Positions 3,978 through 44,779 of a stretch of 44,779 bases of DNA are shown here, in pieces. The translations under genes and the position numbers were made by a program. The first letter of the stretch is position 1. Each line of letters starts with the position of its first letter. The notes under the pieces were generated by a model, which was not told where the DNA came from, made no database searches, and saw only the letters and a list, made by a program, of their open reading frames with translations. The DNA is from Stramenopiles sp. TOSAG23-6 (Eukaryota), in assembly GCA_900128565.1 (NCBI GenBank), contig LT635928.1, positions 1 to 44,779 of the forward strand, in the 5' to 3' direction.

Positions 3978-4392
3978 TTTTTAAATGAAGTGCCGTTTTC
4001 TTTTATTTTTGTATTTACTAAGTAGTTGAGTTAATTTAGTTTATAAAAACTAGCACAGGCAAGTAAAAGTTAATCATTTCAATGATGATGAATGTAATAT
4101 TATTTTAATTTTTACACAATTTTTTTTTTACCTCGAGTCAATTTTAAACAAAATATGGTACCCGGATACCCCGGTCAAAATTGGCAAGCGAATTTTGCAA
4201 TTTTTTCTGTCAAACACACACAAGACAATGTCATAGGCTCATAACCTACATGAGCTACATGTTGGTATATATACTATGTATGTTTTTATGCACTAGCTAT
4301 CACACGATAATATATCCATAGAGGTACNACTATTACTACACACAGCATCATGATATTGAACTTGTATTAGTGATATTGCTTTGACAAAAGAT

Positions 4393-23189: not shown

Positions 23190-23248
23190 ACGTAAAAATC
23201 TAAGAGAAATATTTCAAAACTACAGATGAAAGTTAGTTTTATTATATA

Positions 23249-24456
23249 TTATAAAAGATCGTCGATTTCATTTTCAATATTGTGTTTACTTGTTTCGGAT
23301 TTATTTGTTTCGGATTTATTTGTTTCGGGTTTCGGTTGTGGCAATTTAACTGTTGTTTTTGGTTTTAGACGGGCTTTTTTCTTTCGTCGACGAACTCTCA
23401 CAAAAGTGGGGTTAGGGTTTGGAAGCGATAATATTTTTGCTGTTTGTTTTTTAGATATTTCATTATGCATTACTTTACTTGATGGATTTCTAAAGTTTTG
23501 AGATATTTCATTATGCACAACTGTGCTTGATGGATTTCTAAAGTTATCATTCAGATTATCAAAACTGGAAGGCTGTTCGTTCCAATTAACATCATACTCT
23601 TTAATCAAATTATTTCGTGTAGAAATTTCATCATTTGATTCACTGTCAGACTCAGTTTCTTCAATAGTTTTGTCATCACTTTCACCATGTATAGTGAAAA
23701 AATATATCAAATTAAAAATTCATTAGTTAGGTACGCGTAATTTGCTATGAAAAAATAAATTTGAAATTAATGATGAAAACGTACACGATAGTCACTACCA
23801 AGTTGTGCATGTAAATTTTCAATATGTTTTCTTTTCGAATTAAGTAATGCAGTAAATTGTTTAATTAGTTGAATTTCCATTTGTTTTTTTACAGTAGCGG
23901 CTTCAATAGTGGCAGTGTTAGATGCTTTCAAAAGACCTTTCAACTCTTCATTCTGCTTCTTCAAAGAAGAAATTGTACAAATCGACTGAGAGTATTGCTC
24001 TGATACGTCTACAAGTAATTGAGTCATAGCTTCTGATTTTTTCGATTGATGCATATCGATAGAGAGAAGTTTCAGTTTAAGTAAAGATCCTGGTCTCTGT
24101 ACTTTAACAACAAAAGTTCCCGTCTGGCAATTAATAGCATAAGAAAAGCGTGACCGTTCCACTTCTGTACCAAGAAACGCAGTAAACATTGCAGCACAGT
24201 AATCTTCATTAAATTCAACATCATTTGGTTTTAAACCGCTAAATATTTCAAAAGATTGTACCTGATATATTTTCAGACCACGACAAACTTGAATGTCGAG
24301 TTTTACACTGTTTCCAGTGACTCGACCCTTTACAAGAACAAAATAAGAAAATCCTTTGACATTAAAATGGAACATGTTCACTTTTAGAGTACCTTTGTTC
24401 TCATTGACGACATTCCCTGGTGATTCAGTTAACATGGAATCGATACATTCTGACAT
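23249..24456 (-). CDS. XRCC4: XRCC4-like NHEJ protein; exons 24456-23785, 23686-23249 (369 aa)
   Basis: Beta-rich head, then coiled coil with KKQMEIQLIKQFTALLNSKRKHIENL resembling the XRCC4 ligase IV-binding segment; low-complexity tail. Confidence 0.7.
23687..23784 (-). other. Non-canonical GT-AT family intron (98 nt)
   Basis: CGT|GTACGTTTT...GTACCTAAC...TTCACTATACAT|GGT; phase 0 joins the ORFs. Confidence 0.8.
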
Positions 24457-24588
24457 TGCCGAATGTCTCCGTCAAAACGAAGCAATATATCAATGCAAGT
24501 GGTTGAAGTAATTCGGATATATACTCTGTAAAATTCTATTATCTTTTACAGTTCGTTGTGTTGACGTTTGACGTGACTAGAGTATTAC

Positions 24589-24602
24589 TAGGGTTAGGGT
24601 TT
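24589..24602. promoter_or_regulatory. Telo-box-like TAGGGTTAGGGTTT in a divergent promoter
   Basis: Similar doublets at 38656-38669 and 39928-39941, both upstream of genes. Confidence 0.4.
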
Positions 24603-24773
24603 TTAAACCGTACGTTATTTAGCTAGTTAACGGCTCCTCTCATTTCAGTGATTTCACACGTTCTACAATCAAATAGCAAAACAATATTAAATCTCGAAAT
24701 CATTGTTTGGATTGAGATGGTGGTAGATAGCACTCATCAGTAGATCAACACACGGTAATTTTGTGTGTTTAAG

Positions 24774-26087
24774 ATGTCGCTAAACTCAATGTTTGCACAG
24801 CAAAAGATAGAATCTGAAACACAAATGAACCATGGATATCCTTCGCTTCACAGTGATGAGTTTCAATTATCCAGGATATTATTGAAAGATTTACACAATA
24901 GGGACGATATAATTTCGTCTAGGGATAAAACGTTTCTAAATAGACATATAAATGTTTCACTTGATAAAGCAAAAGTGGAGACATTTTCAGGACTCTATCG
25001 AGGACAACGGCATATTTCTCTAGAGAAAGATAAACTACACAACGCGCCAAGAAGAATACGTACTACTGGAAATCAAAATAAAGGAAAACAAACAAATAAC
25101 TGCTCAGTTACCAATGTCGCTAGAACTAGTTCTCTTGTTCTCTCTCTAGTTTGTGATAATACTGTTCTTCACGTACATTTCATGATTCATTTCAATTTCT
25201 ATTTTAGTATTACCAAATTCTGCACCCAACAAATTTTAAATTTGACATATTTTTTCACAAAACATAGTACTGATTCTATATCCACTGACACTGACGGTGA
25301 CACAGACAATAGTCAATTCATTGATGAAATGAACAATGAAACTTTACACAAAACACAAGCAAAATGTATAAAATCTAAGGTACAACTTTCGAATGTCAGC
25401 GAAAATATTTCCAATGATGTAAAAACAACAGTAAATATGGCACTACAAATGCCTGTTATTCTTAGGGAAATTCACACTGTACTTAAACTTTTACATCAAG
25501 CAAATTTGAAATTTCATCAAGGTATATTAGCTTGTATTCAAGAGAGTTCATTAACTAAATGTCAGAGAAGTTACACAACTTCTACTTACTTTCATTACTG
25601 TGAATTTAATCAATTTGTTGAAGGATTTGAAAATTTAGTTTCTCTTGCACAACTGGAAACTAAGAACCCTAACCCTAATCAATTACCAAAAATGATGTTG
25701 AGAAAATTATCAAACATTATTTTGACTGTCTTTCGTGTGCAGGTATCCAATAGCTCATTCCTTAAATTTGTTGATACTTTAATGGTTTCAGCTTGTTTTA
25801 CAATCATGTCGCTCTGTTACTCCATTAGTAAAAATATGGATATTGATGACGCTAAATATGCCACTATAGTATTCGAATATTTAGATATGGGTAATTTAGG
25901 AATGGTAACGTCATTACAATTGAAGTATTTGTATGATGGTTTAATAGGAATCAGTAAAAGTATTAGTACAAATATTAGTACGAGTGAGTTTATGTTCCCA
26001 CAAAATAATATGAATAGAGTAGAATTTATAATATGGTTTAAAAATTCAATGAAGCGAGGGGTGTTTGCTGATATTTTACAATTATAG
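24774..26087 (+). CDS. Uncharacterised protein with C-terminal EF-hand-like region; probable in-frame intron 25173-25265
   Basis: ORF; VFEYLDMGNLGMVT and MNRVEFIIWF are EF-like. Confidence 0.6.
   Translation: MSLNSMFAQQKIESETQMNHGYPSLHSDEFQLSRILLKDLHNRDDIISSRDKTFLNRHINVSLDKAKVETFSGLYRGQRHISLEKDKLHNAPRRIRTTGNQNKGKQTNNCSVTNVARTSSLVLSLVCDNTVLHVHFMIHFNFYFSITKFCTQQILNLTYFFTKHSTDSISTDTDGDTDNSQFIDEMNNETLHKTQAKCIKSKVQLSNVSENISNDVKTTVNMALQMPVILREIHTVLKLLHQANLKFHQGILACIQESSLTKCQRSYTTSTYFHYCEFNQFVEGFENLVSLAQLETKNPNPNQLPKMMLRKLSNIILTVFRVQVSNSSFLKFVDTLMVSACFTIMSLCYSISKNMDIDDAKYATIVFEYLDMGNLGMVTSLQLKYLYDGLIGISKSISTNISTSEFMFPQNNMNRVEFIIWFKNSMKRGVFADILQL
25173..25265 (+). other. Degenerate GT-AT family intron, stop-free and 3n (93 nt)
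   Basis: GTACATTTCATG...TACCAAATTCTGCACCCAAC...TTTTTCACAAAACAT inside an open ORF. Confidence 0.65.
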
Positions 26088-26129
26088 TTATAGTTATAAT
26101 AAAGTTTATAGTTTTGGTACTCATTAAAA

Positions 26130-28019
26130 TCAGAAAAAGTCTCGTACGAGAAATCCATTTGATATTTTTCTTGTACTTCGGTCCAAGTCTTGCATAATAC
26201 TACCATGTGACATAGGATTTGAACTAGTAAAATCATTTGTTTGTTCAGTGATATTTACAGCATTGTTGTCATCATCTGAATTTTTCTGATCAGAATCAAA
26301 AATTTTGTCATCTGAATTTTTCTGATCAGAATCAAGAATTGCTCTCAAATAATTTATTTCTGATTTTGCCAAATGAAGTTGTTCTCGCAATTCATTAATT
26401 TCTATGAATAAGCTCGTCATATCCTTATTTTGTATATTATTTGTATCATTTTGTTTATCTACAATTTTCATACTATTTGTATCATTTTGTTTATCTACAA
26501 TTTTCGTATTATTTGTATCATTTTGTTTATCTACAATTTTCGTATTATTCGTGTCCATACTTTTTTCAATTTTTGTTATATTTTCTCTATTATCTGTACT
26601 ATTTTTCAGTTGATCATGCATATTTTTTAAGAGTTCCTCTTTAATCGAAGAGTCACTAATATGTTTTGTAACAATATCCAACTGTTGATCAGTGGCACAA
26701 TTATTTCTTTGTAAGTTACGGAAAAGAGTCAAACCCTTTCTAAATGATTTTTGCATGTCTCTCTCCTTATGTCGATTTTGTTTTCGTTCTGAGAAACAAC
26801 TCTTCAATATATTTAACCGCCAAACATCTGGTTCTATAATATCATTTATCCGTGTAGTAAAAGAATTTGGTTTCAATCCAGCAGCAGGTATACCTATATC
26901 ATACAAATGAGCAGCATCGTCAATAAAACCATGTAACAACATAAATTTTATTATTCGATTGAACCATGTTATATCAACTTTCACTCCAGAGGACTGTAAT
27001 AAAGAAAGTATTTTTTCCGACTCCTCCGGTGATTCCAGTCTACTAAGCATAAGCTCAATATGACTTCTATTCACTAAACTTTTATCACACATTATAGTAA
27101 ATAATTTCAGAGATTTAATCTTACCCTCAACAGTACCATCATTTAATTCTGAAAGGTCTCTCGATAAATTTCGACCTAAAATATGTTTTTTATATCCTAT
27201 AGTATCTCTTTTTGTACCTACACGTGTCAGTTTCTTTCTTTGTTTTATTTCTTTTGTTTCTTTACCCTCTGTAGGATGGATTAATAAAGTAGATGTTTTT
27301 TCTTTTGTTTCTTTACCCTCAGTAGGATGGATTAATAAAGTAGATGCTTTTTCAACATTTTTGTCTAATCTAGGAGGAGTAAAACCTGCAGATCTCATAT
27401 GTCGTCTTGCAGCCCATGCATCTTGTTGTCTACCCGCTTTAATTAATTGGTTTATAAGTATCGAGTAACTCATTTCATTTGTCAAATTCATATGTTGCAT
27501 TAGTTTTACCATTTCAACTGTTTGGTCGGAATTTGCAGTAGCAGAAAGGACAAGATTGCATAATTTAGACGTAGCCTTTCCAGCTACAATTAAATCTGCT
27601 GTAATATCACGAGCCCTGAAAAACCCAGACTCGCCATTCCTCAGCTCCCTTTGAACAAGAGAAAATGTCCTTGCTTCTTCGGCAGACTCGAAGTCTTCAA
27701 CTATTGGTACATGAGAAGCAATATGAGTTGTAGTTGAAAATATTCGTTGAAAACCGGAAGAATAAGGATAGCATAAGGGTTGCCGTTTAATTTCATTTAC
27801 ATAACTATTGATACTATATGGGGCTATATACTGCATCCTGTAATTCATTCGTCTAGTTGTGTGTACATGACGAATAAGTAACTTTGGAAAAATAGGGAAC
27901 ACAAGAAGTTTCTTGGAAAAACGTCCAATGTCACGTACTTTCCTACATAGAAAGCAAGTTTGCCTGTAATTTAGCACCCGCGTCGATCCGATGAAACTAT
28001 TTACTAAACTATGATGCAT
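26130..28019 (-). CDS. PPR-like helical-repeat protein, probably organelle-targeted
   Basis: SYSILINQLIKAGRQQDA, VDITWFNRIIK, GLKPNSFT; Arg-rich N-terminus; internal 36-bp and 51-bp tandem repeats. Confidence 0.6.
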   Translation of the reverse strand: MHHSLVNSFIGSTRVLNYRQTCFLCRKVRDIGRFSKKLLVFPIFPKLLIRHVHTTRRMNYRMQYIAPYSINSYVNEIKRQPLCYPYSSGFQRIFSTTTHIASHVPIVEDFESAEEARTFSLVQRELRNGESGFFRARDITADLIVAGKATSKLCNLVLSATANSDQTVEMVKLMQHMNLTNEMSYSILINQLIKAGRQQDAWAARRHMRSAGFTPPRLDKNVEKASTLLIHPTEGKETKEKTSTLLIHPTEGKETKEIKQRKKLTRVGTKRDTIGYKKHILGRNLSRDLSELNDGTVEGKIKSLKLFTIMCDKSLVNRSHIELMLSRLESPEESEKILSLLQSSGVKVDITWFNRIIKFMLLHGFIDDAAHLYDIGIPAAGLKPNSFTTRINDIIEPDVWRLNILKSCFSERKQNRHKERDMQKSFRKGLTLFRNLQRNNCATDQQLDIVTKHISDSSIKEELLKNMHDQLKNSTDNRENITKIEKSMDTNNTKIVDKQNDTNNTKIVDKQNDTNSMKIVDKQNDTNNIQNKDMTSLFIEINELREQLHLAKSEINYLRAILDSDQKNSDDKIFDSDQKNSDDDNNAVNITEQTNDFTSSNPMSHGSIMQDLDRSTRKISNGFLVRDFF

Positions 28020-28475
28020 TATTTAACAGGTAAAACTAAATTTGGTTATATGCAAAATGTCGGCTTCTGAAACGCCCAGTACAAATTTTGCGCAGATTCC
28101 TAACGAGACTAACCTCAAACTGTTCGACGTCAGTTTATACACTTGAAACAGTATATGTCAATTACTTTTAATCCAGTATGTCAACTTATATTTTAATATC
28201 TTAATGAATTGGACTTTTGCTGAAACAAACAACCAAACAGACTCAGAGATATTATACTAGAAAAATACTATGAATGGGATACGTATATTCCTTTTGACCA
28301 GCTGGCCTTGCAAAATTTGGCCGCGGCACGTGTGTTTTTTGGCATCCTCCTCTCATAAGCTCACTTATTTCCAAGCTGTCGCTTTAGTAATTCTATAGTT
28401 ACTTAGTTAGTTGAGAGTAAATCACTAAATTATATCCTAATAGACAATTACCTTAAATCACTTTAAGATTTGAAA

Positions 28476-29072
28476 ATGCCATCCAATAAATGGACGAACT
28501 TCGTTGTTGTCGGTGCTGTTACTGGTGCTGTAGTTGCAGGTGCTGCGTATGTATATCAAAATTTCGCCAACCCAAAGTCAACTAAGGGAAGTAACAAATC
28601 TGAGAAGACGTATATAATGATTAAGCCAGATGGTGTCCAGAGAGGACTTGTTGGCGAGATTGTTACTCGTTTTGAAGAAAAGGGTTTCAAACTTGTTGCT
28701 TTTAAGATGATGAAAGCTTCGCGCCAACTCCTTGAAAAGCATTACTCTGACCTGAAAGGAAAAAAATTCTTTTCAGGTTTGATAACGTATATGCTTTCAG
28801 GACCTGTCGTCTGCATGGTGTGGGAAGGTACCGGTGCAGTAAAGACAGGACGTGTTATGCTAGGCGCAACTGACCCTGCAAAATCAGTACAGGGTTCTAT
28901 CCGAGGAGACTTGTGTATTTCTGTTGGTAAAAATATATGTCACGGGTCTGATTCTGTTAATAGTGCAAAGTCTGAAATTGCTCTTTGGTTTCCAGAAGGT
29001 AAAAACACAGATCCGAAGGTATGTGACTGGGTCAGTCATCATGACCCGTGGATTTATGAAGCTGGGCGATAA
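28476..29072 (+). CDS. NDK: Nucleoside diphosphate kinase with N-terminal hydrophobic extension
   Basis: [42 protein letters not shown]. Confidence 0.96.
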
Positions 29073-29226
29073 ATGTAGCGATAGATTGTGGTATAATTTG
29101 GCGATAGATTGTGGTATAATTTGTAGATAAATGTGAGATCAATTTTGAATTATGCTTTTAATGAAGAAATGAAGTCTTTGTGTTGTATTTACTAAATAAA
29201 TTTGAACTGTTTGAACAATATAAAAT

Positions 29227-30474
29227 TTACTCAACTGACTTTGGTATAAAGACTTGTGCCTGAGCATTGAACTTAGTTACATTATTTAAAGGACAATTTG
29301 TACCAAAGTACTCATGCTGGTTTTCTCCATATGTAGGGTTAGGGTTTTCTCCATATGTAGGGTTAGGGTTTTCTCCATATGTAGGGTTAGGGTTATTATT
29401 CATATGTTCAATTGTGTGGTACATTTCATTGTCACTGTTTGTCCATAATGTAGTTGAATAAACATCATTATCTTCAGGATAAATTCCAGTCACTATAGGT
29501 AAAAAATGAAGTTTTGCCAAATCTGTTAAACCAATGTAAGACAAACTAGATAACCGACGAGGGTTAGGGTTACGACGTGAATTCGACCGACGAGTTGAAA
29601 AGTTAGAGTTTCTATGACGACGACGTAAATTATTTTTCGTATTATTTTTTTTCGTATTAGTAAAATCCCGTGTTTTTATGTTTGAATCATAATTTGAATC
29701 ATAATTTGAATCATAATTTGAATCATAATTTGAATCATAATTCATAGTGAATATATCGACGTTGCTTCTAATAAAACATTCAATTACAAAATTTAAAATT
29801 CCAGTTGTATTATAATCAGATCTAGGTAAATTAGGTGCCAACGCTTGAAGACAAATATCTTTGCCATATCCCCCAAGACAGCCACATATAGCTGTTAATT
29901 GAGTCATTCGACCAAAAGTAGAGTTTTTCGACGTGTCATACGGAGGACCAAGAGATCTTTTCAGAATGAATATAGCAACGTGTTCTACAATACATCTTTC
30001 TGTTAGTTTGAAATTTCCAGGAATATACCATTCGGGAAGCTCCTGTACGTTTTGAGAATTGACTCTGTTATCACTCCTATCACTCTGAAATGAAGCCATT
30101 GACACATCTGATATTGATGTAGTAGAGCCATCTACACTTTCACCATCAGATACAATTTCGTGCTCTACATTAGGACGATTCGGACTGCTAGGTTTGCTAA
30201 ATTCACTTGAAGAAGAAGAACTGTAAACAGCACTTGACGAACTTACATCGGTACAATCCGGTTCATGAAATAACTTATGACTTAAAGGAGACTGTGATTG
30301 TGTAAAGAAACTGTCTGCTGCATGTTGATTGGTCTGAAATCCAGAGTAAGTATTCCAATGATAGAAATAATCGAGGTGGGTTGAAGATATTTGATCCCAT
30401 TGTTGTTGTAGAGGCATATTATTCACACTTCTCGAACGACGTGAATGTGTCTCCTTTCTGAGGTTACGACGCAT
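29227..30474 (-). CDS. Low-complexity protein with C-terminal PAM2-like motif
   Basis: 415-aa ORF; ends TKFNAQAQVFIPKS; NYDS x5 (29681-29742) and NPNPTYGE x3 repeats. Confidence 0.55.
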   Translation of the reverse strand: MRRNLRKETHSRRSRSVNNMPLQQQWDQISSTHLDYFYHWNTYSGFQTNQHAADSFFTQSQSPLSHKLFHEPDCTDVSSSSAVYSSSSSSEFSKPSSPNRPNVEHEIVSDGESVDGSTTSISDVSMASFQSDRSDNRVNSQNVQELPEWYIPGNFKLTERCIVEHVAIFILKRSLGPPYDTSKNSTFGRMTQLTAICGCLGGYGKDICLQALAPNLPRSDYNTTGILNFVIECFIRSNVDIFTMNYDSNYDSNYDSNYDSNYDSNIKTRDFTNTKKNNTKNNLRRRHRNSNFSTRRSNSRRNPNPRRLSSLSYIGLTDLAKLHFLPIVTGIYPEDNDVYSTTLWTNSDNEMYHTIEHMNNNPNPTYGENPNPTYGENPNPTYGENQHEYFGTNCPLNNVTKFNAQAQVFIPKSVE

Positions 30475-30755
30475 CAGTGGGATATCAATAGAGCTATTTT
30501 GAACTGTGTATCCGCACGAGCCACACGAGATACTTTTTTGTACGTGAGAGATAGCTGAGTTCCGCTTTTATTGTTTCTAAAAAATAGTTGACGTAAAAAA
30601 CGATTGACCAATTTAGTGAAGGTAGAGTGTTGTGAGTGACACCAATAAAAATTGCAGGGAGAAATCGAATGGCGCATATATATCAGGTATTATTATTACA
30701 ATTATAAAATGAGCAGGTTTGTACAACAATGAAATTTTTTTTTATTTTTTGTTTT

Positions 30756-33700
30756 TTACCTTCCACTTGCATTCCTCTCTAACGATAATCTAAGGACATC
30801 AATCTGTCCACTCAACCCCTCAATTTCTTCTTGTAAATGTTTATTTTCACCATGTGCACGATCTAATTCTTCTTCTTTAGCTCCCATTATTTCAAGTAGT
30901 ACAGAATGTTTCATTTTTATATCCTTTGTAAATCCTAATAATTTTTTCTCATTTTCACGAGATTTTTCAAGTTCAGTTTTACATTTTTCTTCTTTATCTG
31001 TAGCAGCTACTAAACTATTTATCAATTCTCTATGATTATTTTCTAATTGGAAAATCTTTCGTTGGAGGGTCCGTATTTCATTAGATTTTATACCAAGTAA
31101 TCTTCTTGCCTTTAACAACTCTAAAGCATCTGATGTATTTTTAGTATTTTTTGGGATTTCATTTGTATTACTATTCATATCATCAGTCAAATCTTCAGTA
31201 TCATTTGTCATTGTACCATTTTCAACACTTTTAGAAATTTCATTATTTTCGAGAGAATTATCTTGTGGAATGTTATTTGGTGTAGCATTTGTAGCAAAAC
31301 TGACTTTAAATTTTGTCTGACATTGCAAAAGTTCAAATTCCAAATTATTAATTCGACTTTTTGCTGAAAGTAGGTTTTTTTTTAATGTAGTTATTGACGT
31401 AGCATGATCCTGTATAGATTTCGTTCGCTCAGCACGAATACTGTCTAAAAGTTCCGACAAACCAGCAGCTTGTTGTTTTTCTTTTATTCTCATTTCTTCA
31501 AGTGATTTAACTTCAACTATTTTCTTTTCCAATTTTGTAGAGATTTTCTCCATCGTTTGAATCGCATTTTCTTTTTCTAAAACAGCTGACTCTAAACGTT
31601 TTTCAGCATCATTTCTTTTCATTCGATCTTGATGAGCCATACTTTCAGCAACACTGACTTTACCTTGTAAAATATTTTCCATATTTGCTGACACTGCAGC
31701 AGCAGCATCACTTTCAGCGCGGAGTGTCTGTAATTGAATGACTAATGGTCGCGTAGCATCTGCGTTTGAAGAAATCACTTCTTGGTGACGTAATTCTACA
31801 GTTCGTAGTTTATTTCGTAGTTCTTTGATCTCATTCCGAAAACTTTCACTTCTTTGATGGTTTTCTTTTCTAGATGTTTCAATTTGTTGCTGTAACATAC
31901 TTATTTCTGCTAATAAGGAATCAATTCTATCAATTGATGATTTTGTGTATTTGCTTTTTTCATTTGCCTGCTCTTCCTCATGAGCTTTTAATTTTGTCTG
32001 CGCTACTTCAGAAATCTTCTTAGCATCAGATAAACTTAACGCTGCATCTTCAATGAGTTTTTGAGTCGACTCTTTTGTCTCTTTTAACTCTCGCTTCAAA
32101 GATAAAACTAAAGTTTCTGCTGTTTCCCAATTTTTTTTTAAATCCACAGCATTTGATTTCTGGTTGTCATGTGCTTCATTTAATTCGAGAAATTCTTTTT
32201 CTTTTATTGAAAGTTTGTTTTGTACAGATAATGCTCTCTGACGGTGTTTCAAACTTTCTTCACGTAATAAAGATAATATATTGTGAAAAAATATTTTTTT
32301 TTTACTACGTAATCGTTAGGTACAAAATTTCGTATGAAAAAAAAACAAATTTTGAAATTCAATATAAAAACGTACATTCTTTCTTTGTTTCAGCCAAAGA
32401 ATTTATCGTTTCATTCATACTCGCTTCTGCATTAGCTGCGCGAGAATGTAATTCTCCAAATTCTCGTTGCCTTTTTGCTAACTGGCGCTCACGTACAACT
32501 ACTTTTTGTTCAAGCAAAGAAGTTTTTTTATCCGCTTCTAGAACGGATTTATTGAATAAATTAACTTTTTTGGTCAATTTTTCTACTTCTTGTATTTTAC
32601 TTCTCAGTAAATCTTTGGAATTTTTTAATTCTAACCGAATCTCTGCAATTTCATCTATTGTATCACTCATCAATATTCCATCCACTGAAATTTTATTATC
32701 ATCATTTTTTAATTTAGTTTCTTGTATTTGTGTTTTTTGTATACAAATATCCTTATTATTATTGCTATCATTATTATTTTCTTCTTCGTTGTCGATTGTA
32801 AGAGTTTTATCATCAGACGTTCTATTGACAATAACACCATTGCTATTCTTATCCATTTTATTATCATCATCAGGTATTGTTGTAGTACCACCAGTGCTTG
32901 TAGAAGCAACAACAGCAACTTTATCAGAAATAGATGCATTACTATTTGTACTGCCACTACTACTGACACCTTCAACAAAAACAACTTTATGTTTTTCAGT
33001 TAACTCAAATATTTCATTTCGGAGTTTTTCCGTTGTTTTCTTTTCTTCAGATAAATCAATTTCAAACTGTTGGGCAGAAATAAGTTTAGACTTCTGCGTT
33101 TCGAATGCAACTTTAAATTTATGCGCGATTGCTTTAAGCCTTTCCATTCTAGATTTCATTTCATCTTTTTCTTTCGTTGACTGTACATGCTGTTTCTCCA
33201 GAGAAGAAGTTTTTTCCTTTTCTGACTCAAGTTCATCGGTCAACTTAGAATTTACACCAACCATTGTTTGAAGTTGCTCTTCACGCTTCTTTAATGCAAA
33301 TTTCAATTGTTTGATTTCATTCGACTGTATCTTTAGACGGGATTCTAAGTCATCAACAGGAACAACTATTGTTGATTTAGCAGAGTCATCAATAGGAACA
33401 ACTGTTGTTGAATCAGCAGAGTCATCAATAGGAACAACTGTAGTTGATTCAGCAGAGTCATCAATAGGAACAACTGTAGTTGATTCAGCAGAGTCGTCTC
33501 TGTGTTCTGTGGGTCCCGTTGACAAGCTTGAGGATAAATCACCATCTTTCGTATTATCAATTATTAGGTCTTGTTTTGATTGTATAGGCTTTTCTTCAGG
33601 TAAACTATCCTTTTTGAGGCTATTTTCAGGTGTGGTAGAGTCTTGGACAAGTGAAGAAACTGATACCCCAGGAAGATCTTTGGTGGCGGAGTCAACTGGT

Positions 33701-33858
33701 AATTCCTTACCAGTTCCATTTTCTATATTTCTTTTACCTGATACACCATTCGCTATAGCTTCTATCTTGTTAACACCAACAGCATTATCAAAGTGAGCCT
33801 CCATGTTCTTATGCATCTGGGCTGCACTATCCAATACAGCAGAAAAGCTATCCCACAT
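30756..33858 (-). CDS. TMF1/Sgm1-like golgin coiled-coil protein; exons 33858-32376, 32275-30756 (1000 aa)
   Basis: Long coiled coil; ADATRPLVIQLQTL and C-terminal KHSVLLEIMGAKEEEL resemble TMF-family motifs. Confidence 0.7.
32276..32375 (-). other. Non-canonical GT-AT family intron (100 nt)
   Basis: GAAT|GTACGTTTTT...TACGAAATTTTGTACCTAAC...TTCACAATATAT|TA; phase 1 gives KKELSLLREESLK. Confidence 0.8.
33348..33497 (-). repeat. 36-bp coding tandem repeat x4 (DDSAESTTVVPI)
   Basis: Directly visible in DNA and protein. Confidence 0.9.
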
Positions 33859-34092
33859 TGTTCAAACTTTGAATATCAAAATCAAAAAGAAGTAACTGAC
33901 CTACGCTCGTTTATACAATACTCTAATTAACGTTATACAAATAGGAGCAAAGATGTTGAAGCATATAATCCAATGATTAACTTGTTACAGACTTGTTGGG
34001 TAGTTTTCTTTCAATGTCATTCCCCAGCGTAAAATAGTCTTGGTGAGTCCTTGGGTGTATGAATTTATGTGGCCGCCAAAGAGATCTGATTC

Positions 34093-34108
34093 AGAGAGAG
34101 AGAGAGAG
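34093..34108. repeat. (AG)8 microsatellite in a divergent intergenic region
   Basis: AGAGAGAGAGAGAGAG. Confidence 0.85.
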
Positions 34109-34348
34109 GAGGAACTGAACATTGGGAACAGGTTTGTGTTTGCCGAAGAAAATTTGAAATTCTTTCGTTTCAGGCAAATATATATAGGAATTCATATGTC
34201 TGTCACGTGATTGTTCGTAAATATAACTGTTACAACAACAGAGAACTAAATACTGCATAGATCTGTAAATGGCATCCAAAAGTCTCCTTCATCTAGTTTC
34301 CGTCAATTTTTAAATCTGCAATTACTGTATTATTGACTTGCAAAAATT

Positions 34349-36811
34349 ATGGAAAAAATGCTACCTGAAAATTTTTATAGATATGACAAGGGAATTTTTC
34401 TGAATGAAGAAAATGAAAAGATACAAAAATATCGTAGAAACTACCGCAAGTGGAGACTTCGTGGAAGCACGGGGGCAGTGGGCGAGGTCGGTGATTGTAT
34501 TAGTGATCCTTTACAGTATTCACATGATATTATTATTGATGTCGACAAAGTAAATTGTGCAATATGTCAGAAAGAAGCGCGTTGCCCAGTTTCACTGAAA
34601 TGTGCAGGACATCATATATTTTGTTGGAAATGTCTAAAGCTTGCTGACTCAGCACAAACAAAACGCGCTTGTCCTTTGTGTCGCGAAAGTCTTCAATCAC
34701 TTGATCCATCATATCACAATGTAGAAGTATTTAGAATGATGACATTACATGGAAAGAAGAAAACAAGAAACAAGTCTCTTCATTTAGAATTGAAGATACT
34801 TTCTGATGATGAACCAGCAGATGAAAAGTACATAACGAAAAAGGAATATAATCTTGTTGAAACAAATTCACGTTTTGAAACGAAAGATAATTTATTAAAA
34901 TCGGATGCTCCATTTCCGTGGAAGTTACTGCTGCCAACTCTATTTGTCACTGGTGTGGCAAATGTACGTTTTCATTTCAATTTCGAATTTTTTTCTTATA
35001 CGAAATTTTGTACCTAACAAAAAACATTTGAATGAAAAATATTTTTCCAAAATATATTTAACTTGGACATTTCATACAGCTTACTTACCTTTCATGGTTG
35101 ACTATGTAAATAAAGAAAAATCATCCAATGCTTCCAATCCTAACCAGAATGATTCTTTAAATTCTGTAGGATATCAAATTGGCTGGATAATTGCTTGTAT
35201 GTTTTCATTATTTATTTCAAATTTATTTTTTTACTATGAAAATTTTGTACCTAATGAATTGTTTTTGACTAAAAAACAAATATTTTTCACAGAACTTCGT
35301 TTCAGTTTGGGCAATTGATATCTTCATATTCTTGGGGTCAAATTTGTGATAAATGGGGTCGAAAACCTACCCTATTGTTATCCTCGATGTGCTGCTGCAT
35401 TTTCTTTGTTTTCTTTGGTTTCAGTAGAAAACTATGGACAATGTTATTATTTCGGTTTGGAAGTGGTGCTTTGAATGGTGTAGTAACAGTAAGTAAGTCT
35501 GTCATAGGAGATATTTGCTCTGGAATTCACATTGGTAAATGTTGGAGTCTTCTCGGAGCAATGTATGGATTTAGTCGCACATTTGGTCCAGCACTTGGTG
35601 AATCGTTGTCGCAACCATCTGATAAATATTCATATTTTAGTGATATTTCATTCTTTAGAGCTTATCCTTTTGCATTACCATCACTTTTTGTAGGTACATT
35701 TGCTTTCATTGCATTTATTATTGGATTTTTCTATTTGAAGGAGACAAAACCACAAGATTATAAAAAGGATATAGAAATGCTGGACTTTGAATATGATGTA
35801 ATAAAAACTAATGATGATACGCTAACCACTAGTGTGGAATATAATGTAATAAAGACTAATGATGATACTCTGAACACTAGTATGGAATATAATGTAATTA
35901 AGACTAATGATGATACTCTAAACTCTAGTATTGAGATGGAAGCGAGGGATACACGTATTGACATAGATAATGCAACCAGCGTTGTTAAACAAATAGAAAT
36001 TAGTGAAAATGATACAACAAAGATAGATAATACTGTTAAATGTTATGATGATAACCCGAGTAGCAAGGATGAATCAAATACCAAACGAATACTGAAAGAT
36101 CCAAACTGTGTCACAGCATTATCACTATATTTTTGGTTCGCAGCTGCAGAAGGTATCACATCAGTGGGTATTCCACTTTGGCTCATATCTTCAAATGAAG
36201 CTGGGGGTTTGGAGTACACTGCAAAAGATGTCTCATATCTCTATTCTATTGCTGGAGTTTTTGAGATCCCCTGGCAAATTTTTGTATTTCCTTTATTATC
36301 AAATACTTATGGTTTCTTGTTTTTACTTCGGATGGCAATCTTTAGTTGGATTTCAGTCATTTTGACGATGCCTTTTATTGTACCATTATTTATTTCAAAA
36401 GATGAAACTGGAATTTCTACATCTACCACGAATACAGTTACATATTCTAATTCAGAAACTGATACAAATATAATAGTATGGTGTATAATTTGTATTTATT
36501 TCACTGTAATAACAGTATGTCAAGTAACTTCATTCTATTCAATTTTCCCAATCATTAATGCTTCAGCTTCCAAAATGGATGTAGGGACTATCAATGGAAT
36601 GTCACAAGTGATAGCAGCATTTGCTCGACTACTAGCCCCAATTATTGGTTCAAATATTGCTGCGTGGACAGCAACAACAGAATCGAATAAGAAGAAATTA
36701 AATGGAACTTCATATCCATATCATGCCATTTTATTTGGAGTTGCTGGAATATTTGCATCGGTTGTAATAAAACAAACATATAAAATCAAAGTATCAAAAT
36801 TAAGAAAATGA
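34349..36811 (+). CDS. RING finger fused to an MFS (ZIFL/DHA1-like) transporter; exons 34349-34963, 35058-35196, 35298-36811 (755 aa)
   Basis: CAIC...CAGHHIFCWKC...CPLC RING; YLPFMV, WGQICDKWGRKP, FGPALGESLSQP, FFRAYPFALP MFS motifs; frames joined by two family introns. Confidence 0.75.
34964..35057 (+). other. Non-canonical GT-AT family intron (94 nt)
   Basis: AAT|GTACGTTTT...TACGAAATTTTGTACCTAAC...CCAAAATATAT|TTA; phase 0; no AG inside. Confidence 0.82.
35197..35297 (+). other. Non-canonical family intron, apparently GT-TT (101 nt)
   Basis: GCTT|GTATGTTTT...TTGTACCTAAT...TTCACAGAACTT|CG; both nearby AGs are out of frame; gives GWIIASFQFGQ. Confidence 0.65.
35789..35935 (+). repeat. 48-bp coding tandem repeat x3 (EYNVIKTNDDTLNTSM-like) in the MFS central loop
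   Basis: Directly visible in DNA and protein. Confidence 0.85.
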
Positions 36812-36953
36812 TTCATCGAAATAATAATAAAACATTTGTATAAAAATTAAGACAAAATAGTTCATCGAAATAATAATAAAACATGTAAAAAAGACAAAAA
36901 ATAATTTATCGAAATTAATAAAAAAGAGTAAAACATTGATTTTTCAAAAAAAA

Positions 36954-38446
36954 CTAATCCAACTTTCCACGCTTCTCCTTCTTTGTTTTTGTTTTTGTTT
37001 TTATCTTTGTTTTTGTATTTTCATTTACCTTTTTCAAATTTTTTCCTTTATTTTTTTGGTCTCTGTGAGAAATATTCTTTAAATAACTTTGTGACGTCAT
37101 TTCGTTGACCTCCTTCGGATGTTCTTTCGCCCATGATAAAGATCTTGGGTATATAACTTCCATCAAATTAGTATACCATCCATGGTTATAAATATTTTTA
37201 ATTTCAACTCCTATCAGTTTTACAAATCTCTCTGGGATCTGATGTATTATAAAAAAATATTTCAAACATTTGAAATTCGTTAGGTACAAAATTTCGTATA
37301 TGAAAAAAAAATAGATTTAAAATTAATTTTAAAATGAATGATAAAAACAAACATGATATTCTTCAAAATTTGGATTATCTCCACGACGCATTGCATCCTC
37401 TCGAATCTTTTTATTTCTCTTTGTTAAAAAATTAGCCTTTTCTATGAAATACTTCAAATCATCGTATTTATATCCTTCATTTGTCGTCATATTTCGAAGA
37501 ACTAAAGAAAAATGATAAAGTGTAAATACAAATATGACAACACCCATTACTGACGCAGTTATGCATAGACCCATCATATAATTATACTTACTTAACATGA
37601 ATCTAAAAACTATGAGTACTGTTGCTTGTGTTCGCTCTCCAGTGATAGCACTCCGAAACGTTGCTTCAAATAAATTGAGATCGTGAACAATCGATAGTAA
37701 AGTCATGTATTGTGAAAAAACACGACATCACAAAAAAACATCGTTAGGTACGAAATTTCGTACGAAAAAAAATTGAAATTGAAAAAAAACAAAAAAACAT
37801 ACATACCAATCGCCCAGCCACCATACATTAACAATAGCGAAGAACTCAAGATAAATTGTAAGAAATACCAATGGTTTTCTTCCCCAACTGGTTGGGCAAT
37901 CCACCCACAATAATGATCATATCTGGAAACATTTACACCCATTATTGAACAAAATTTAGAACGCGCTGGTTTTCGAAAACCAGCGGTACGGCAAACGTCG
38001 GGGTAATATATTTGTTGGTCGTATTCATAATTGTCAAAACGTCTGTGTGTAATACTTGTAATATATCCTGGTTCTTTTGAGCACGCCTGGTAGAATTTAA
38101 ACAATGTATAGAACATTAATCCTGTCCATAAGATTTTGTGTATTTCGCCAACATACTTATTTGGAACCATAGGGAAAACTGTAAACATTGCAATACCCCA
38201 ACCTCCGAGAATGAGACCAAGGTACATAATTTGCAACACAGGATTTCGTTGTTTGAACATATAGTGAAAAGCATTATAAGCATATGTAATCAAAAAGCCT
38301 AATCCTACTGATCTGAGAATTTTTTTCAAATAATGACCAAGGCTAAAAAATGATCTATTCAAAAAGTTATCCTGCGACGTGCACATGACAACGTAAAAGC
38401 TCGTCAAAATTGACAGAATGATAAATGCAGGCACAAGAAGCGACAT
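36954..38446 (-). CDS. DHHC-family palmitoyltransferase (Swf1/ZDHHC4-like, DHYC motif); exons 38446-37803, 37704-37353, 37241-36954
   Basis: KPARSKFCS...RYDHYCGWIAQPVGEEN, NMTTNE, NIYNHGWYTNLMEV. Confidence 0.88.
37242..37352 (-). other. Family intron (111 nt GT-AT, or 114 nt GT-AG using the next CAG)
   Basis: CAT|GTTTGTTTTT...TACGAAATTTTGTACCTAAC...TATAATACAT|CAG|ATC; both ends are in frame. Confidence 0.75.
37705..37802 (-). other. Non-canonical GT-AT family intron (98 nt)
   Basis: AT|GTATGTTTT...GTACGAAATTTCGTACCTAAC...TTCACAATACAT|G; phase 2; no AG inside. Confidence 0.82.
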
Positions 38447-38752
38447 TTTCAATATACACTGTAATAGACCAGACGCAAAAAAATAACTACTATGTAATAT
38501 GTAATGAACTTCGTGAAAGAAACAGACCCTTGTAAAAAGAACAGCAATGTTAATGTGTATACTTTCTTTTTCTAAACTCTCGAGTGTTTGGATTGCGATT
38601 GGCCGCTATTCATGACTGGCTAAAGCGCTAAACAAACGTACGAAAAGCTATCATTTAACCCTAACCCTACTATATAGGTAGTCGCGCGGGGTTGAGCCTC
38701 AACGTCGATTAAAAAATAAAGTTTGGTAAAAAAAATCATTATTTATATTTTT

Positions 38753-39814
38753 TTACATTTCAGATTGACCAACTTCAACAGAAGTAACAAAAGGAAGAGA
38801 ACATTCATTCATTGTTGTTTCCTTATTTTCCCATGAATCAACATCCTTATCAATCACATCTTCACTATTTCTATTCTTTTGTTTTTCACTGAGACGAGAC
38901 ACAACTTTATCTTTACTATAACTACAAATACCAATAATAATTAAAAAGGCAGCTAAAATATAAAAATGATTCGGAAATACATGATCAATCACAATTCGAA
39001 CAATTACAGCCCAGAGGTTCGAAGTTAGTAAAGATATATTAAAAAAGGCTGAATCAGAAAGTCGCAGCATGAAAGCAGTCATGCAATACATACTACACAA
39101 ACAAATGACAAATCCAGTCATATAACAAACTGTATGAAGATCTAATGTAAATTCTGACGTTTCACAAAGAATAAATGACTGGGATATAGAAATAATACTG
39201 CCAAATAAACCAAGCATACCTAAAAATTCAAGTGGGTTATGAACTTTTACGACACTTTCTTGACCTACGTTAGATGTCGCGTAGAGAGAAGCGCCAAGTA
39301 AGCACAGTAAGTTACCTAAAAGTGGATTTCTTGCAGTAGAAGAATTTGTAGTTGAAACATCCGAATAAAATAATGCACCAATTCCTGAGAAACATAAAAT
39401 ACAGCCAATGAAATGATATCGAGTATATTTTGCTGTAAGGAAAATGTAGGATAAAAACATACAAACAGGAACAGAGAAGCAATCCAAAAGTAAAATACTC
39501 GTCACTTTTGTATACTGATAGGCTTTTACCACAACAAAATTTGCTTCGACGTCAAACAATGCTAGGATTGCATATTTCCACCAACAACCTTCTAGTGTAA
39601 AACCACCACGCTTGATAAATAAATACGGGAGAAACATTGACAAAAGTATATAATTAGGACATGACTGTAAAGCAGGTGCGTCAAAGCCTCTTTTCTCGAG
39701 GAGACTGGAAAAAAGACCAGTACCTCCAATACAAAATGAAATAAGCTGCCCAAATAAGATTTGCTTAATTGTTAATTGTGTACATATGCTCCATTTCTTT
39801 CTTGTCGTCGACAT
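38753..39814 (-). CDS. SLC35F1/F2-like (DUF914) DMT-superfamily transporter
   Basis: GQLISFCI, WWKYAILALFDVEANFVVVKAYQYT, LLDC, LYATSNVGQE, FNISLLTS. Confidence 0.9.
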   Translation of the reverse strand: MSTTRKKWSICTQLTIKQILFGQLISFCIGGTGLFSSLLEKRGFDAPALQSCPNYILLSMFLPYLFIKRGGFTLEGCWWKYAILALFDVEANFVVVKAYQYTKVTSILLLDCFSVPVCMFLSYIFLTAKYTRYHFIGCILCFSGIGALFYSDVSTTNSSTARNPLLGNLLCLLGASLYATSNVGQESVVKVHNPLEFLGMLGLFGSIISISQSFILCETSEFTLDLHTVCYMTGFVICLCSMYCMTAFMLRLSDSAFFNISLLTSNLWAVIVRIVIDHVFPNHFYILAAFLIIIGICSYSKDKVVSRLSEKQKNRNSEDVIDKDVDSWENKETTMNECSLPFVTSVEVGQSEM

Positions 39815-40043
39815 GATAATTCAAAGACTATATTATATTGTCGTGATTACTATTGGAGTGTCGATGTTCTACTGGAATATAGAGCCGGTGCGTGTCTGTT
39901 ATGACAAACGACAAGTAGTAATTAGGCTAGGGTTAGGGTTACGTAGAAATATTTCGATTCAGCAACAGTTCTCAACACCGTTGTGGTTTCCTGCCTTGTA
40001 CTAAACTAAACGTAGGGCTCATTGGACCTAAATCCTATTTACA

Positions 40044-41975: not shown

Positions 41976-44779
41976 TTATTGTGTAAGTGTTTTCTTATTT
42001 CCACTGTATCTAAATACTTTTTTGTTTCGCTTTTTCTTCATTTTTTTTGTTTTATCACCTGAGGCAGTTGTAATAGAGCGAGCATCAGCCAACCATTTAG
42101 CTAATTGGTATGATGTGATGCCACCAGTGCCACTGCTATCGATCCGTGCAAATGATATAAGTGCAGACCTATGTGGAATATCCATTCCCAATCTTCGTAG
42201 GATTACACGAAATTCAGATAAACCAATCATCATATTGTTAAAACTATTTGTTGTGTGAGAACCAGAAGTAGAAATATTTACTTTTTCATGCTGTGAAAAA
42301 GTAACCTGGCATGTTCCTAATCTATTCATCAAAAGAGACATTCCAACTGAAAAATCGAGCTCAGAAGGTTTGCATACTCTCCCATAAGTTTCACTATTTT
42401 TCGGTGAATCTAATCCAAAAAATGAGACTATCCTAAACCCACGTTTTACACCTGCATTAATTAAAATAGTTGATAGTTGACATTCGCTGTTTTCAACCAT
42501 ATTATCTCTTAGAGTGTGAGTCCTAATTTTGATTCCATAACCATTTTTACATGCTACGAGGTCTGCTTCTAATTGCGATCGATCATTTTCATTTAGTTTA
42601 ACACTTATTTCCTTATTTTCTTTTTGCTTTTCTATAAATTTATTATCTTTAGTGTTTATATTCCCTTTATCGTCACGGGTAATTATTTCCGGTTGATCGT
42701 GTTTTTTTATATCATTTACATTGAATAAATCATTAAATATGCCATCTGTAAGCGTAAGTGAAAAATAAAACCAATATCGAATAAATATTTGCAACATATG
42801 TCTTAATAAACCTGACTCGTTTTCAGAATGTATATTTCCCACTTTTATGCTTCTATTTTGAACTTTCATAGTTCGTGTGGCTTGGTATATTTCGCGAACA
42901 ACTGAAGAATTACTGGTAAAGAAATGTACACTGATACCAACATCTAAAGCTATTAAATCACGAATTCTTTCAATATGATTTGTCAGTGCTTTCTCGGTGA
43001 GAATAAAATTGCTTTCACTGGGAGCATTATAACTATTTTGCATAACTTCAGTAGAGACATTAATATCTCGTATACTACAAATTCTGGTCCATAATGCATC
43101 ACGTTTTTGCCTATTAAAATGTGAATATATATAATATAATAAATTATCTTCAGCAAAGAGCCAACCTCTAGGTGATGAGGCATCATCTAATAAACTGTTA
43201 TGATTGTCTTCATTCTTCATTCTATTATTTTCAACAGCAATCGTATTTCTCTTTTCATGAATCACATGTGAAACTTTGAAAGATGGTTTATCATCTTCTT
43301 GAAATACAGATTGGAAACCCATACGTGGTGGTGGAATCATCATAAAATGTTTAGTGCAGAGACTTTTCCCCGTGCCGTTGTCAAAAAACCAATCACCCAC
43401 TGTCAATACACATTGACAGTAATCGCAGAGATCTACCTGTTTTGTAGAGTATGTTTTATGATCATTACGTAATAGATTATTTGTATTTACGTATTTTTTT
43501 TCGGGTTCTTTCGATCTGGATTTAATTGTGCTCTTACTTTTACTTTTACTTCTGCTTCTACTTCTACTTCTACTTCTACTTCTACTTCTACTTCTACTTC
43601 TACTTTTACTTCTAGTTCTGCTTCTACCTCTGCTTCTGCTTCTACCTCTGCTTTTGCTTCTACTTTTACTTTTACTTCTGCTTCTACTTCTACTTCTACT
43701 TCTACTTCTACTTCTACTTCTGCTTCTGCTTCTACTTCTGCTTCTACTTCTGCTTCTACTTCTGCTTCTGCTTCTGCTTCTGCTTCTGCTTCTACTTCTG
43801 CTTCTACTCCTGCTTCTACTTCTGCTTTTACTACTATTCCAATTACGTTCTTTACTCAGCTTATTAAAACGAATATGTGAGCGCTTCCATATAGGAATCC
43901 TTTTTCTCCCTCTTTTCTTTCGTTTTTTTTCAACTATTGGATTATCCAAAAGGCGCATACTCATTTTACGTACAGTGTCCAAACCATTCGCCTTTGCTAA
44001 TGTATTGACTCTATTTGGGTCGATTATTTTTTTGTTTTTTTCTTTCGAAATTCGCGTATCCATCGCATTCAACTCTTGGAGAACATCATTTGCATCTTTA
44101 AAACACTTGATAAGCACAAATTTGGTTTTACTTTCATCACACAGCTCACCCCAGTGTAATTTACACAAGTCATAGTCACAGTTTGTTTTATGAAACCAAT
44201 TGTTATACATTACATCACTGTTGCATATATCGCAGCTAAAATCCATTGCAATACTAGTAGGGTGATTTTGAATATTACTATGTTTTTTACTACGAGCGTC
44301 TTCGTTCGATGACCCCTGCAGTAAAGTACCTAGTAGAGTTGCAGGTTTGGGTAATTTGTTTTCATAAGGATTAATGGGAGATATCACTTTTACCGGATTA
44401 ATACTATTTGCTTTTATCCTAGCATTACTATTTTGACTTAATTTTGGAGGCATGTTCACTTTACCATCTTCTATACAGGCACTACCATGAGCTAGAAGTG
44501 TATTAACTTGATTCTTTAACAACATATTTCTCACCCTCCTCTGAATTGCAATAGCAGATGCTTTCGCTTTCTTTAAATAATTTCTTTGGAGTTTACCTCT
44601 GATATGTGCCAACAATTGATTTATTACCATACGCTTTAGTTGAAACTCTTGGTAATGAACATGACGTCTACATAATGATTGTATTAACGTGGCTGCATTC
44701 TTTTGATGTTTTTTATATTCTCTAATTTGCCTGCCACGCTGATGTGATTGTATTAACGTGGCTGCATATATACTGTCAT
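41976..44779 (-). CDS. 5'-truncated protein with IQ motifs, two ZZ-like Cys/His motifs, a long RS repeat and a C-terminal EF-hand
   Basis: Frame open to the window end (AATLIQSHQRG, AATLIQSLCRR, AIAIQRRVR); CDIC...YDLCKLH; DSSGTGGITSYQL. Confidence 0.75.
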   Translation of the reverse strand, partial: DSIYAATLIQSHQRGRQIREYKKHQKNAATLIQSLCRRHVHYQEFQLKRMVINQLLAHIRGKLQRNYLKKAKASAIAIQRRVRNMLLKNQVNTLLAHGSACIEDGKVNMPPKLSQNSNARIKANSINPVKVISPINPYENKLPKPATLLGTLLQGSSNEDARSKKHSNIQNHPTSIAMDFSCDICNSDVMYNNWFHKTNCDYDLCKLHWGELCDESKTKFVLIKCFKDANDVLQELNAMDTRISKEKNKKIIDPNRVNTLAKANGLDTVRKMSMRLLDNPIVEKKRKKRGRKRIPIWKRSHIRFNKLSKERNWNSSKSRSRSRSRSRSRSRSRSRSRSRSRSRSRSRSRSRSRSRSRSRSRSRSRSRSKSKSRSKSRGRSRSRGRSRTRSKSRSRSRSRSRSRSRSRSRSKSKSKSTIKSRSKEPEKKYVNTNNLLRNDHKTYSTKQVDLCDYCQCVLTVGDWFFDNGTGKSLCTKHFMMIPPPRMGFQSVFQEDDKPSFKVSHVIHEKRNTIAVENNRMKNEDNHNSLLDDASSPRGWLFAEDNLLYYIYSHFNRQKRDALWTRICSIRDINVSTEVMQNSYNAPSESNFILTEKALTNHIERIRDLIALDVGISVHFFTSNSSVVREIYQATRTMKVQNRSIKVGNIHSENESGLLRHMLQIFIRYWFYFSLTLTDGIFNDLFNVNDIKKHDQPEIITRDDKGNINTKDNKFIEKQKENKEISVKLNENDRSQLEADLVACKNGYGIKIRTHTLRDNMVENSECQLSTILINAGVKRGFRIVSFFGLDSPKNSETYGRVCKPSELDFSVGMSLLMNRLGTCQVTFSQHEKVNISTSGSHTTNSFNNMMIGLSEFRVILRRLGMDIPHRSALISFARIDSSGTGGITSYQLAKWLADARSITTASGDKTKKMKKKRNKKVFRYSGNKKTLTQ
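43533..43833 (-). repeat. Hexamer (AGYAGA)n microsatellite encoding an RS dipeptide tract
   Basis: About 300 bp of CTTCTA/CTTCTG units on the + strand. Confidence 0.95.

Follow-up and report, generated by a model that had tools for sequence, protein, structure and literature searches.

The window analyzed here, a stretch of 44,779 nucleotides from Stramenopiles sp. TOSAG23-6, is gene-dense, with a GC content of 28 to 40%, and encodes eukaryotic proteins that include an H+-ATPase, a Nop58-type protein, a dihydroorotate dehydrogenase, an MFS transporter, and a DHHC palmitoyltransferase. Sixteen of its letters are N, and three of these (5929, 8642, and 8658) fall inside copies or relics of the intron family described below. 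The top match to the H+-ATPase was the EukProt record P0001, labeled GSMAST32 (85% over 99%). We take this label, on the basis of the name and not of phylogeny, to denote a MAST-3 marine stramenopile, and on that reading of the record the host of the intron family is a MAST-3-like stramenopile. A RING-finger frame at 34337 to 36811 runs free of stops into exon 1 of the MFS transporter, which suggests a RING-MFS fusion protein. Positions 43461 to 43892 encode a long run of repeated Arg-Ser dipeptides, in a frame of 933 codons in which IQ-like motifs also occur.

The DHHC palmitoyltransferase gene (36954 to 38446, minus strand) has three exons and encodes 427 amino acids once two introns of one family are removed. 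One of the two, at 37705 to 37802 on the minus strand (98 nt, GTATGT...ACAATACAT, placed by homology), contains the sequence on which the original prediction centered, an internal palindrome fused to a branch-site-like motif. This flagged intron comprises, all on the minus strand, a U2-type donor, GTATGT, with G at +5 (37797 to 37802); a perfect 16-nt palindrome that would form a 6-bp stem with an AAUU loop if folded (37748 to 37763); the motif GTACCTAAC (37743 to 37751), a match to nnyTrAy in which the predicted branch A would be 37744, at a distance of 39 nt from the 3' end; and a conserved 3' block, TTTTTCACAATACAT (37705 to 37719), which is a candidate AG-independent acceptor signal. The other intron, at 37242 to 37352 (minus strand, 111 nt, GTTTGT...ATAATACAT), is the one whose removal was seen in RNA. 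Two more perfect palindromes occur in the same gene, one of 22 nt in coding sequence (37964 to 37985) and one of 18 nt within the 111-nt intron (37316 to 37333).

Together, the flagged palindrome and motif form the central block of an intron family that recurs in copies of 93 to 111 nt. A search of the window with a profile built from the copies yielded nine full introns, one edge-truncated copy, and two antisense relics without intron ends. Ten window copies, spread over at least eight genes, scored E values of 1e-6 or better, the next unrelated match having an E value of 1.1, and a further copy lies on another contig, L016; the ten full copies referred to throughout are the nine from the window plus that of L016. 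All begin with GT, nine end in AT, and one ends in TT. Besides the two in the DHHC gene, full introns lie at 8592 to 8690 (plus strand, 99 nt, in the gene for the plasma-membrane H+-ATPase, placed by the spacing in homologues) and, placed by frame only, at 17150 to 17246 (plus strand, 97 nt, GT..AT, with a 14-nt palindrome), 23687 to 23784 (minus strand, 98 nt, GT..AT, with the palindrome broken and the branch motif intact), 32276 to 32375 (minus strand, 100 nt, GT..AT), 34964 to 35057 (plus strand, 94 nt, GT..AT, in the MFS transporter gene), and 35197 to 35297 (plus strand, 101 nt, GT..TT, where the upstream exon also ends in CTT). A diverged copy of 93 nt at 25173 to 25265 (plus strand, profile match) has both the palindrome and the branch motif altered and is in frame without a stop, so that its removal is not required by the frame. 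The 3' half of a family intron, with an AT end, is cut by the window edge at positions 1 to 51 (plus strand, profile match). The antisense relics of the family core, at 5907 to 5963 (minus strand; nhmmer E value, 7e-8) and 5307 to 5340 (minus strand; E value, 0.004), both lie within the open frame at 4360 to 6060 on the plus strand.

The family accounts for 10 of the 12 introns found in the window. At least two introns are not members: an ordinary GT-AG intron at 8395 to 8486 (plus strand), which is without CTAAC and has TGCTTAT as its best branch candidate, and an intron at 14894 to 15040 (minus strand), which has TACTAAC and whose last base is N. The pairwise likeness of the family copies is 64 to 84%, a range inflated by low complexity, and conservation is concentrated in islands, with per-column values of 0.90 in the donor, 0.88 in the 3' arm of the palindrome, 0.96 in CTAAC, and 0.91 in the 3' block and a value of 0.65 in the spacers. 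Copies that are this unlike one another and yet share islands of conservation indicate that the family is old and under constraint. The copy on L016, an unrelated marine contig, carries an identical perfect palindrome, is 84% like the flagged intron, and has a 5-nt flanking repeat. It was the sole family copy among 18 metagenome loci that matched a donor-plus-core pattern; the other 17 were chance matches or bacterial repeats, L006 among them having only a weak partial profile score. A viral scan gave seven loci, all judged to be chance, and a scan of prokaryote genomes gave none. Degenerate telomere-like repeats occupy positions 2280 to 2330 of L016, immediately downstream of the gene that carries the family intron.

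Removal of one family intron was observed in RNA. A polyA-RNA contig from run X3 joins 37241 to 37353, skipping exactly 111 nt with GT..AT ends on the transcribed strand; this junction is supported by one contig at a depth of 3.4, with flanks of 134 and 173 nt and a slide ambiguity of 3 nt. A CAG that lies 3 nt downstream of the intron end was not used in the RNA. Because of the slide, the junction fits GT..AT or AT..AC alike; sliding to AT..AC is possible at 4 of the 10 family junctions and not at the other 6, which rules out AT-AC as a general reading. The remaining six family introns in 22900 to 40000, the flagged one included, were unbridged among the RNA matches listed for four runs, a result that speaks neither for nor against their removal. 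The RNA runs contain only 6 to 16% of the sampled words.

Comparison with homologous proteins, which align gap-free, calls for a non-AG end at two more sites. At 37705 to 37802, the GT..AT cut aligns without gaps to all six DHHC homologues; the nearest in-frame GT-AG cut leaves a 15-residue gap, and two other choices lose 19 to 20 residues. At 8592 to 8690, the GT..AT cut alone yields the 20-residue spacing seen in all 83 pattern-matched homologues (of 120), and AG cuts lose 7 to 9 residues. Frame evidence from 35197 to 35297 agrees, in that the textbook-looking TTTTTCACAG (CACAG), 5 nt before the TT end, would create a stop in the MFS frame. Family introns interrupt coding frames and end without AG, and one of them is shown to be removed in RNA. 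They lack the YAG acceptor expected of U2-type introns (AT in nine of ten, TT in one), and the precise removal from mRNA that is expected of introners is seen at one RNA junction, with homology at two more introns. The RNA skip at 37242 to 37352 and the homology at 37705 and 8690 thus bear out the original prediction that the 3' splice site is set without AG.

The ATPase intron has also affected a public gene model. P0001 reads through it and loses conserved residues, and its differences from the window ATPase are mostly model gaps plus this read-through of 8592 to 8690. A practical consequence of this mis-modeling is that the protein sets of the MAST-3-like lineage are probably damaged. In another ATPase model (P0002, EukProt g1184.t1), which is 68% identical, FFFS replaces the conserved GRTA beside the family junction, and this replacement suggests a mis-annotated intron at nearly the same site in a relative.

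The RNA runs contain two further joints that involve family introns. On the transcribed strand, a contig of run X1 that joins 23785 to 32316 leads from a predicted branch A into a family donor, a lariat-like geometry; the joint is ambiguous, as the intervening letters are not known and two neighboring copies would look alike. A second joint, from 32357 back to 32311 in run X5, is equally ambiguous. Runs X1, X2, and X5 also pile hundreds of contigs on the intron core (bins 32036 to 32606, 34891 to 35461, and 37175 to 38316), with a summed depth, not to be read as a copy number, of up to ~3,000 versus <5 on exons. The pile is absent in X3, and it fits either very many copies together with DNA or unspliced RNA or else a stable intron RNA.

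The best candidate for the signal that sets the 3' end lies in the 3' block. The last 15 nt of the family introns have a conservation of 0.91 per column versus 0.65 in the spacers, a U-rich tract precedes the intron end, and the end itself lies 6 nt beyond TTTTCACA or a variant of it, however far away the branch is. This end overrides both the CAG 3 nt downstream in the RNA-verified intron and, judging by the frame, the CACAG 5 nt upstream at 35197 to 35297. The distance from branch to end varies between 34 and 43 nt, so the 3' end is not set by a branch ruler, and a fixed ruler of this kind was rejected. The TTTTCACA-plus-6-nt end had been put forward as part of the 3' signal before this analysis, and its conservation and the bypassing of nearby YAGs uphold it in that role. 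We infer that a protein may read the TTTTCACA block.

The branch motif looks largely conventional. There are eight exact copies of GTACCTAAC in the window, all within family introns, and variants are GTACCTAAT at 35247 and GCACCCAAC in the 25173 copy. Its distance from the 3' end had been given as 25 to 42 nt; it is 33 to 42 nt in all ten full copies (34 nt in the truncated one), and no 25-nt case was found. The predicted branch A accordingly lies 34 to 43 nt from the 3' end in the ten full copies. The intron at 14894 to 15040, which had been taken as an ordinary TACTAAC intron for comparison, does contain TACTAAC, 61 nt from its end, but it ends in TAN, and because N falls at 14894 its AG is not confirmed by the sequence. 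The family donors are of the U2 type, with GT in ten of ten, G at +5 in nine, and T at +6 in ten. According to the available text of PMC8531310, the branch is recognized through the GUAGUA of U2, and mammalian branch sites follow the consensus nnyTrAy and usually lie 18 to 37 nt before the acceptor. Nine of the ten copies match nnyTrAy and one has CCCAAC, with four of six pairs to GUAGUA, all as sequence matches only; ACCTAAC fits the consensus and makes four contiguous pairs with GUAGUA. The family motif can be described as an ordinary CTAAC preceded by the GTAC of the palindrome, and it looks like a usable predicted branch site. Since ACCTAAC fits the ordinary nnyTrAy, the variant U2 that had been suggested is not needed.

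It is nevertheless conceivable, although we consider it unlikely, that the extended motif is read by a variant U2 snRNA, a paralogue that has co-evolved with the family. Insertion of one G, changing GUAGUA to GUAGGUA, would allow full pairing with UACCU(A)AC. The GTAC that precedes the branch hardly varies (its G, A, and C are present in ten of ten copies), which is more constancy than an ordinary U2 would need, and GTACCTAAC as a whole is near-invariant while the spacers drift. Calculated energies of the bare duplexes are +1.3 kcal/mol for the standard 4-bp helix, −0.7 kcal/mol for TACTAAC, and −4.0 kcal/mol for the GUAGGUA variant. The weakness of the 4-bp helix, about 2 kcal/mol below TACTAAC, together with the near-invariant GTAC, keeps the variant-U2 idea alive, and there are precedents for co-evolution of snRNAs in the Physarum U12 (10.1101/2020.10.12.336362) and the Entamoeba U1 (10.1101/2022.06.08.495308). 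However, ACCTAAC is already within the usual consensus, common descent alone can account for part of the conservation, and an Rfam search of the window found no snRNA. A standard U2 is probably present, because a non-family intron carries TACTAAC, and in Fritillaria the branch-recognition sequence of U2 is described as strictly conserved (PMC13326754).

The palindrome at 37748 to 37763 is perfect, as had been reported, and the four letters with which the branch motif opens serve in the flagged copy as the palindrome's 3' arm. The window contains eight matches to it at ≤3 mismatches versus 0.19 expected. There are three palindromes of at least 16 nt in the window, and at least one was present in 73% of 30 Markov simulations; a single palindrome of 16 nt is therefore ordinary here, and only its recurrence goes beyond chance. 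The form TACGAAATTTCGTA was confirmed in the 17150 copy. Compatibility with G-U pairing, which had been claimed for other copies, holds in four of them (32375, 34964, 35197, and 37352), but the 8592 copy contains a T-T mismatch, and in the 23784, 25173, and truncated 1-to-51 copies the stem is broken.

A conserved hairpin that defines the 3' site, the structural part of the original prediction, was not supported. RNAalifold found 0 consensus pairs in 11 aligned copies, there was no compensatory change, the named 6-bp stem was paired in 67.2% of 61 cells versus 67.7% after shuffling, and the covariation score of the stem, 0.070, equaled the shuffled score of 0.070, the 11 sequences making this a weak test of low power. 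A lack of covariation was among the outcomes that the original prediction itself had named as refuting. The sole two-sided change in the stem turned out to be a one-column misalignment of the 35197 copy. Folds of nine whole introns, leaving out the 8592 copy with its unread bases, gave z-scores of −1.59 to +1.07, none of them significantly stable. The stem probability, taken without the two antisense relics, was 0.93 to 0.94 in the flagged copy and that of L016, 0.59 and 0.32 in two copies, and ≤0.05 in five full copies, among them the RNA-verified intron at 37242 to 37352. By these folding models the flagged copy is the best hairpin case in the family and not the typical one. Most copies retain the outer stem pairs, U-A and A-U, and where C has changed to T within the stem, G-U pairing is still allowed; these changes may be a single inherited event. 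A required hairpin was rejected on the missing consensus pairs and covariation, the unstable folds, and the broken stems. Both of the perfect-palindrome copies, the flagged one (37722 to 37744, minus strand) and that of L016 (2475 to 2578), share a second predicted stem after the branch motif; it would take in the branch A, and the two copies are possibly a young subfamily.

RNA structure might still position the branch, either through the hairpin or through a helix between the donor GUAYG and the 3' arm YGUAC of the palindrome that would place the branch A by the 5' splice site, and we regard this as improbable. Of 50 cells, 48 would allow the donor to pair with the 3' arm, versus 38 of 50 that allow the hairpin at those five positions, the donor pairing survives in both full copies with a broken hairpin, and the hairpin itself has a probability of >0.9 in the flagged copy and in L016. 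Against this stand the consensus, shuffling, covariation, and folding results given above, including the low stem probability of the intron verified in RNA; moreover, GTAC is self-complementary, so conservation of the sequence is enough by itself to produce the pairing with the donor, which is only a lead. The most suitable reading of the palindrome is that of a sequence motif internal to the element and not of an RNA stem needed for splicing. It adds little beyond marking the family, and the interest is carried by the intron family itself.

We see still less reason to think that a transformed minor (U12-type) spliceosome, tolerant of non-AG ends, removes the family introns. The U12 machinery can splice GT-AT introns (PMC1557818), another stramenopile, Blastocystis, has hundreds of minor introns (PMC10639083), U12 introns have multiplied via a transposon in Physarum (10.1101/2020.10.12.336362), and four of the ten family junctions allow the AT..AC reading by slide. 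However, the RTATCCTT donor is present in none of the ten copies, the motif is not TTCCTTRAC (GTACCTAAC shares with it only the TAAC end and scattered letters), six of the ten junctions are unreadable as AT..AC, and a U-rich tract lies before the end. Removal without a spliceosome, by an endonuclease and ligase or through pairing of the termini as in the nonconventional introns of euglenids (PMC11282704), would make the branch-like motif incidental and appears very unlikely: the intron ends are partly complementary and are paired in the predicted fold of the flagged copy, but such terminal pairing is missing from most folds, and every copy combines a standard donor with a U-tract and with CTAAC at 34 to 43 nt from the end. 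That the insertions are not spliced at these ends at all, being assembly artifacts, pseudogenes, or cases of hidden AG use, would suit the stop-free, in-frame 25173 copy and the eight of nine full window copies that have no RNA junction among the matches listed or lie outside 22900 to 40000, but it is contradicted by the exact RNA junction at 37242 to 37352, by AG alternatives that remove 7 to 15 conserved residues or make a stop, and by the copy on the independent marine contig, and we give it almost no weight.

Several features bear on the origin of the family. The exon ends repeat the letters of the intron ends, with 19 repeated letters over ten introns; random coding sites gave 4.2, and none of 20,000 draws reached the observed total. 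This repetition comes mostly from the six of ten sites that end in AT, and a site-specific permutation gave a P value of 0.08; with so weak a site-specific signal, a target preference without duplication fits too, and by the criterion of PMC9860276, in its available text, duplication evidence at this level is "ambiguous." A target-site duplication was probably the source of the AT acceptor. The donor and the ACAATAC end form an imperfect inverted match of 4 to 6 nt, and the word GTAY marks the left end, recurs twice within the palindrome, and appears in inverted form at the right end; these repeated words may be DNA-level binding sites of a MITE-like element. The relic at 5907 to 5963 scored 28.0, versus a maximum of 10.9 in 500 codon shuffles, and the score of the relic at 5307 to 5340, 12.7, was reached by 0 of 500 codon shuffles. 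The orientation of the relics, in which they cannot be spliced, points to mobility at the DNA level. Neither a transposase or autonomous element nor an empty site was found for the family. Both relics are read through in one frame, a 566-codon open frame with a weak HEAT match, and are possibly exonized insertions. A word search returned no homologue of this protein, and a full search returned one, aligned at residues 43 to 285, short of both relics.

On balance, we favor the explanation that these are transposon-derived U2-type introns, descended from an old, repeatedly copied mobile element and removed by a spliceosome with an AG-independent acceptor. U1 and U6 would read the GTAYGT donor, an ordinary U2 would pair with CU(A)AC, the second A of which would branch, and a protein would read the U-tract and the TTTTCACA block, with cleavage 6 nt further on, usually after YAT. 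Such a cut, after YAT and without AG, implies that the AG check, by U2AF35 and the second-step site, would have to be relaxed or changed. A more far-reaching version, which we consider doubtful, would have a second, specialized splicing route in which a U2 paralogue (predicted sequence, GUAGGUA) reads GUACCUAAC and a diverged U2AF or Prp8 cuts six bases past the UUUUCACA block without an AG check, all of these having co-evolved with one transposon that makes up most of the genome's introns.

Few features of eukaryotic genes are as strongly conserved as the 3' AG. A normal donor and branch without AG, in 10 of the 12 introns found, isolates the acceptor rule as the sole changed variable. If the density in the window is extrapolated, the genome would offer thousands of natural substrates for the study of second-step site choice, along with a precise prediction for U2. 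The family is not described in the literature that we searched on non-canonical and GT-AT, stramenopile, MAST-3, and introner introns, a coverage that leaves out most subscription journals. Splice sites are not discussed in the available text of three MAST genome papers (PMC5778133, 10.64898/2026.04.17.719054, and PMC12614181), and among the matches to "mast" in the supplement of PMC9860276 the best two of six are Mastigamoeba.

The family shares parts of its organization with several known systems. With the standard U2 branch site (PMC8531310) it has in common the fit to nnyTrAy and four contiguous pairs around a bulged A; it differs in that four more upstream letters are near-invariant and in that the predicted branch, 34 to 43 nt from the end, lies at or beyond the upper edge of the 18- to 37-nt range. 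Like introner elements (PMC9860276), it consists of multicopy introns derived from one element in an aquatic protist host. Introner elements bring a donor of their own, and their acceptor may come from a target-site duplication; GC and GA donors are mentioned in the available text on them, whereas AT acceptors are not. The family copies are only 64 to 84% alike and are therefore older than typical introners. A lead as to the type of element is provided by ISL2EU DNA transposons, whose AT target-site duplication would supply an AT acceptor (PMC4482050), but their A|AT|T target is not the rule in the family and their transposase was not found here. The U12 introns of Physarum polycephalum (10.1101/2020.10.12.336362) resemble the family in transposon-driven gain, an atypical branch motif, and non-canonical ends. 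They have, however, an RTATCYTT donor and a branch 9 to 12 nt from the end, neither of which is found here, and a complementary change in U12 has been shown for them.

In its intron ends the family parallels Fritillaria. The introns of the tunicates Fritillaria borealis and F. pellucida are reported to have YAY ends, with U2 unchanged and U2AF duplicated (PMC13326754). Common to those introns and the family are YAY intron ends that are often AT, the same triplet often standing before the donor, and transposon-like repeats (PMC13326754 and PMC11282704). The Fritillaria introns are removed by the U2 spliceosome according to the same sources; for the present family, removal of the U2 type is what we infer. 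Most donors in Fritillaria are AG or some other non-GT sequence, and its introns are diverse, whereas here the donor is the standard GTAYGT and the copies share a core and a 3' block. Fritillaria and the host of this family belong to distant lineages, and the likeness is therefore convergent. In Fritillaria both ends of the intron have changed, and a change confined to the acceptor, as in the present family, is the cleaner of the two cases.
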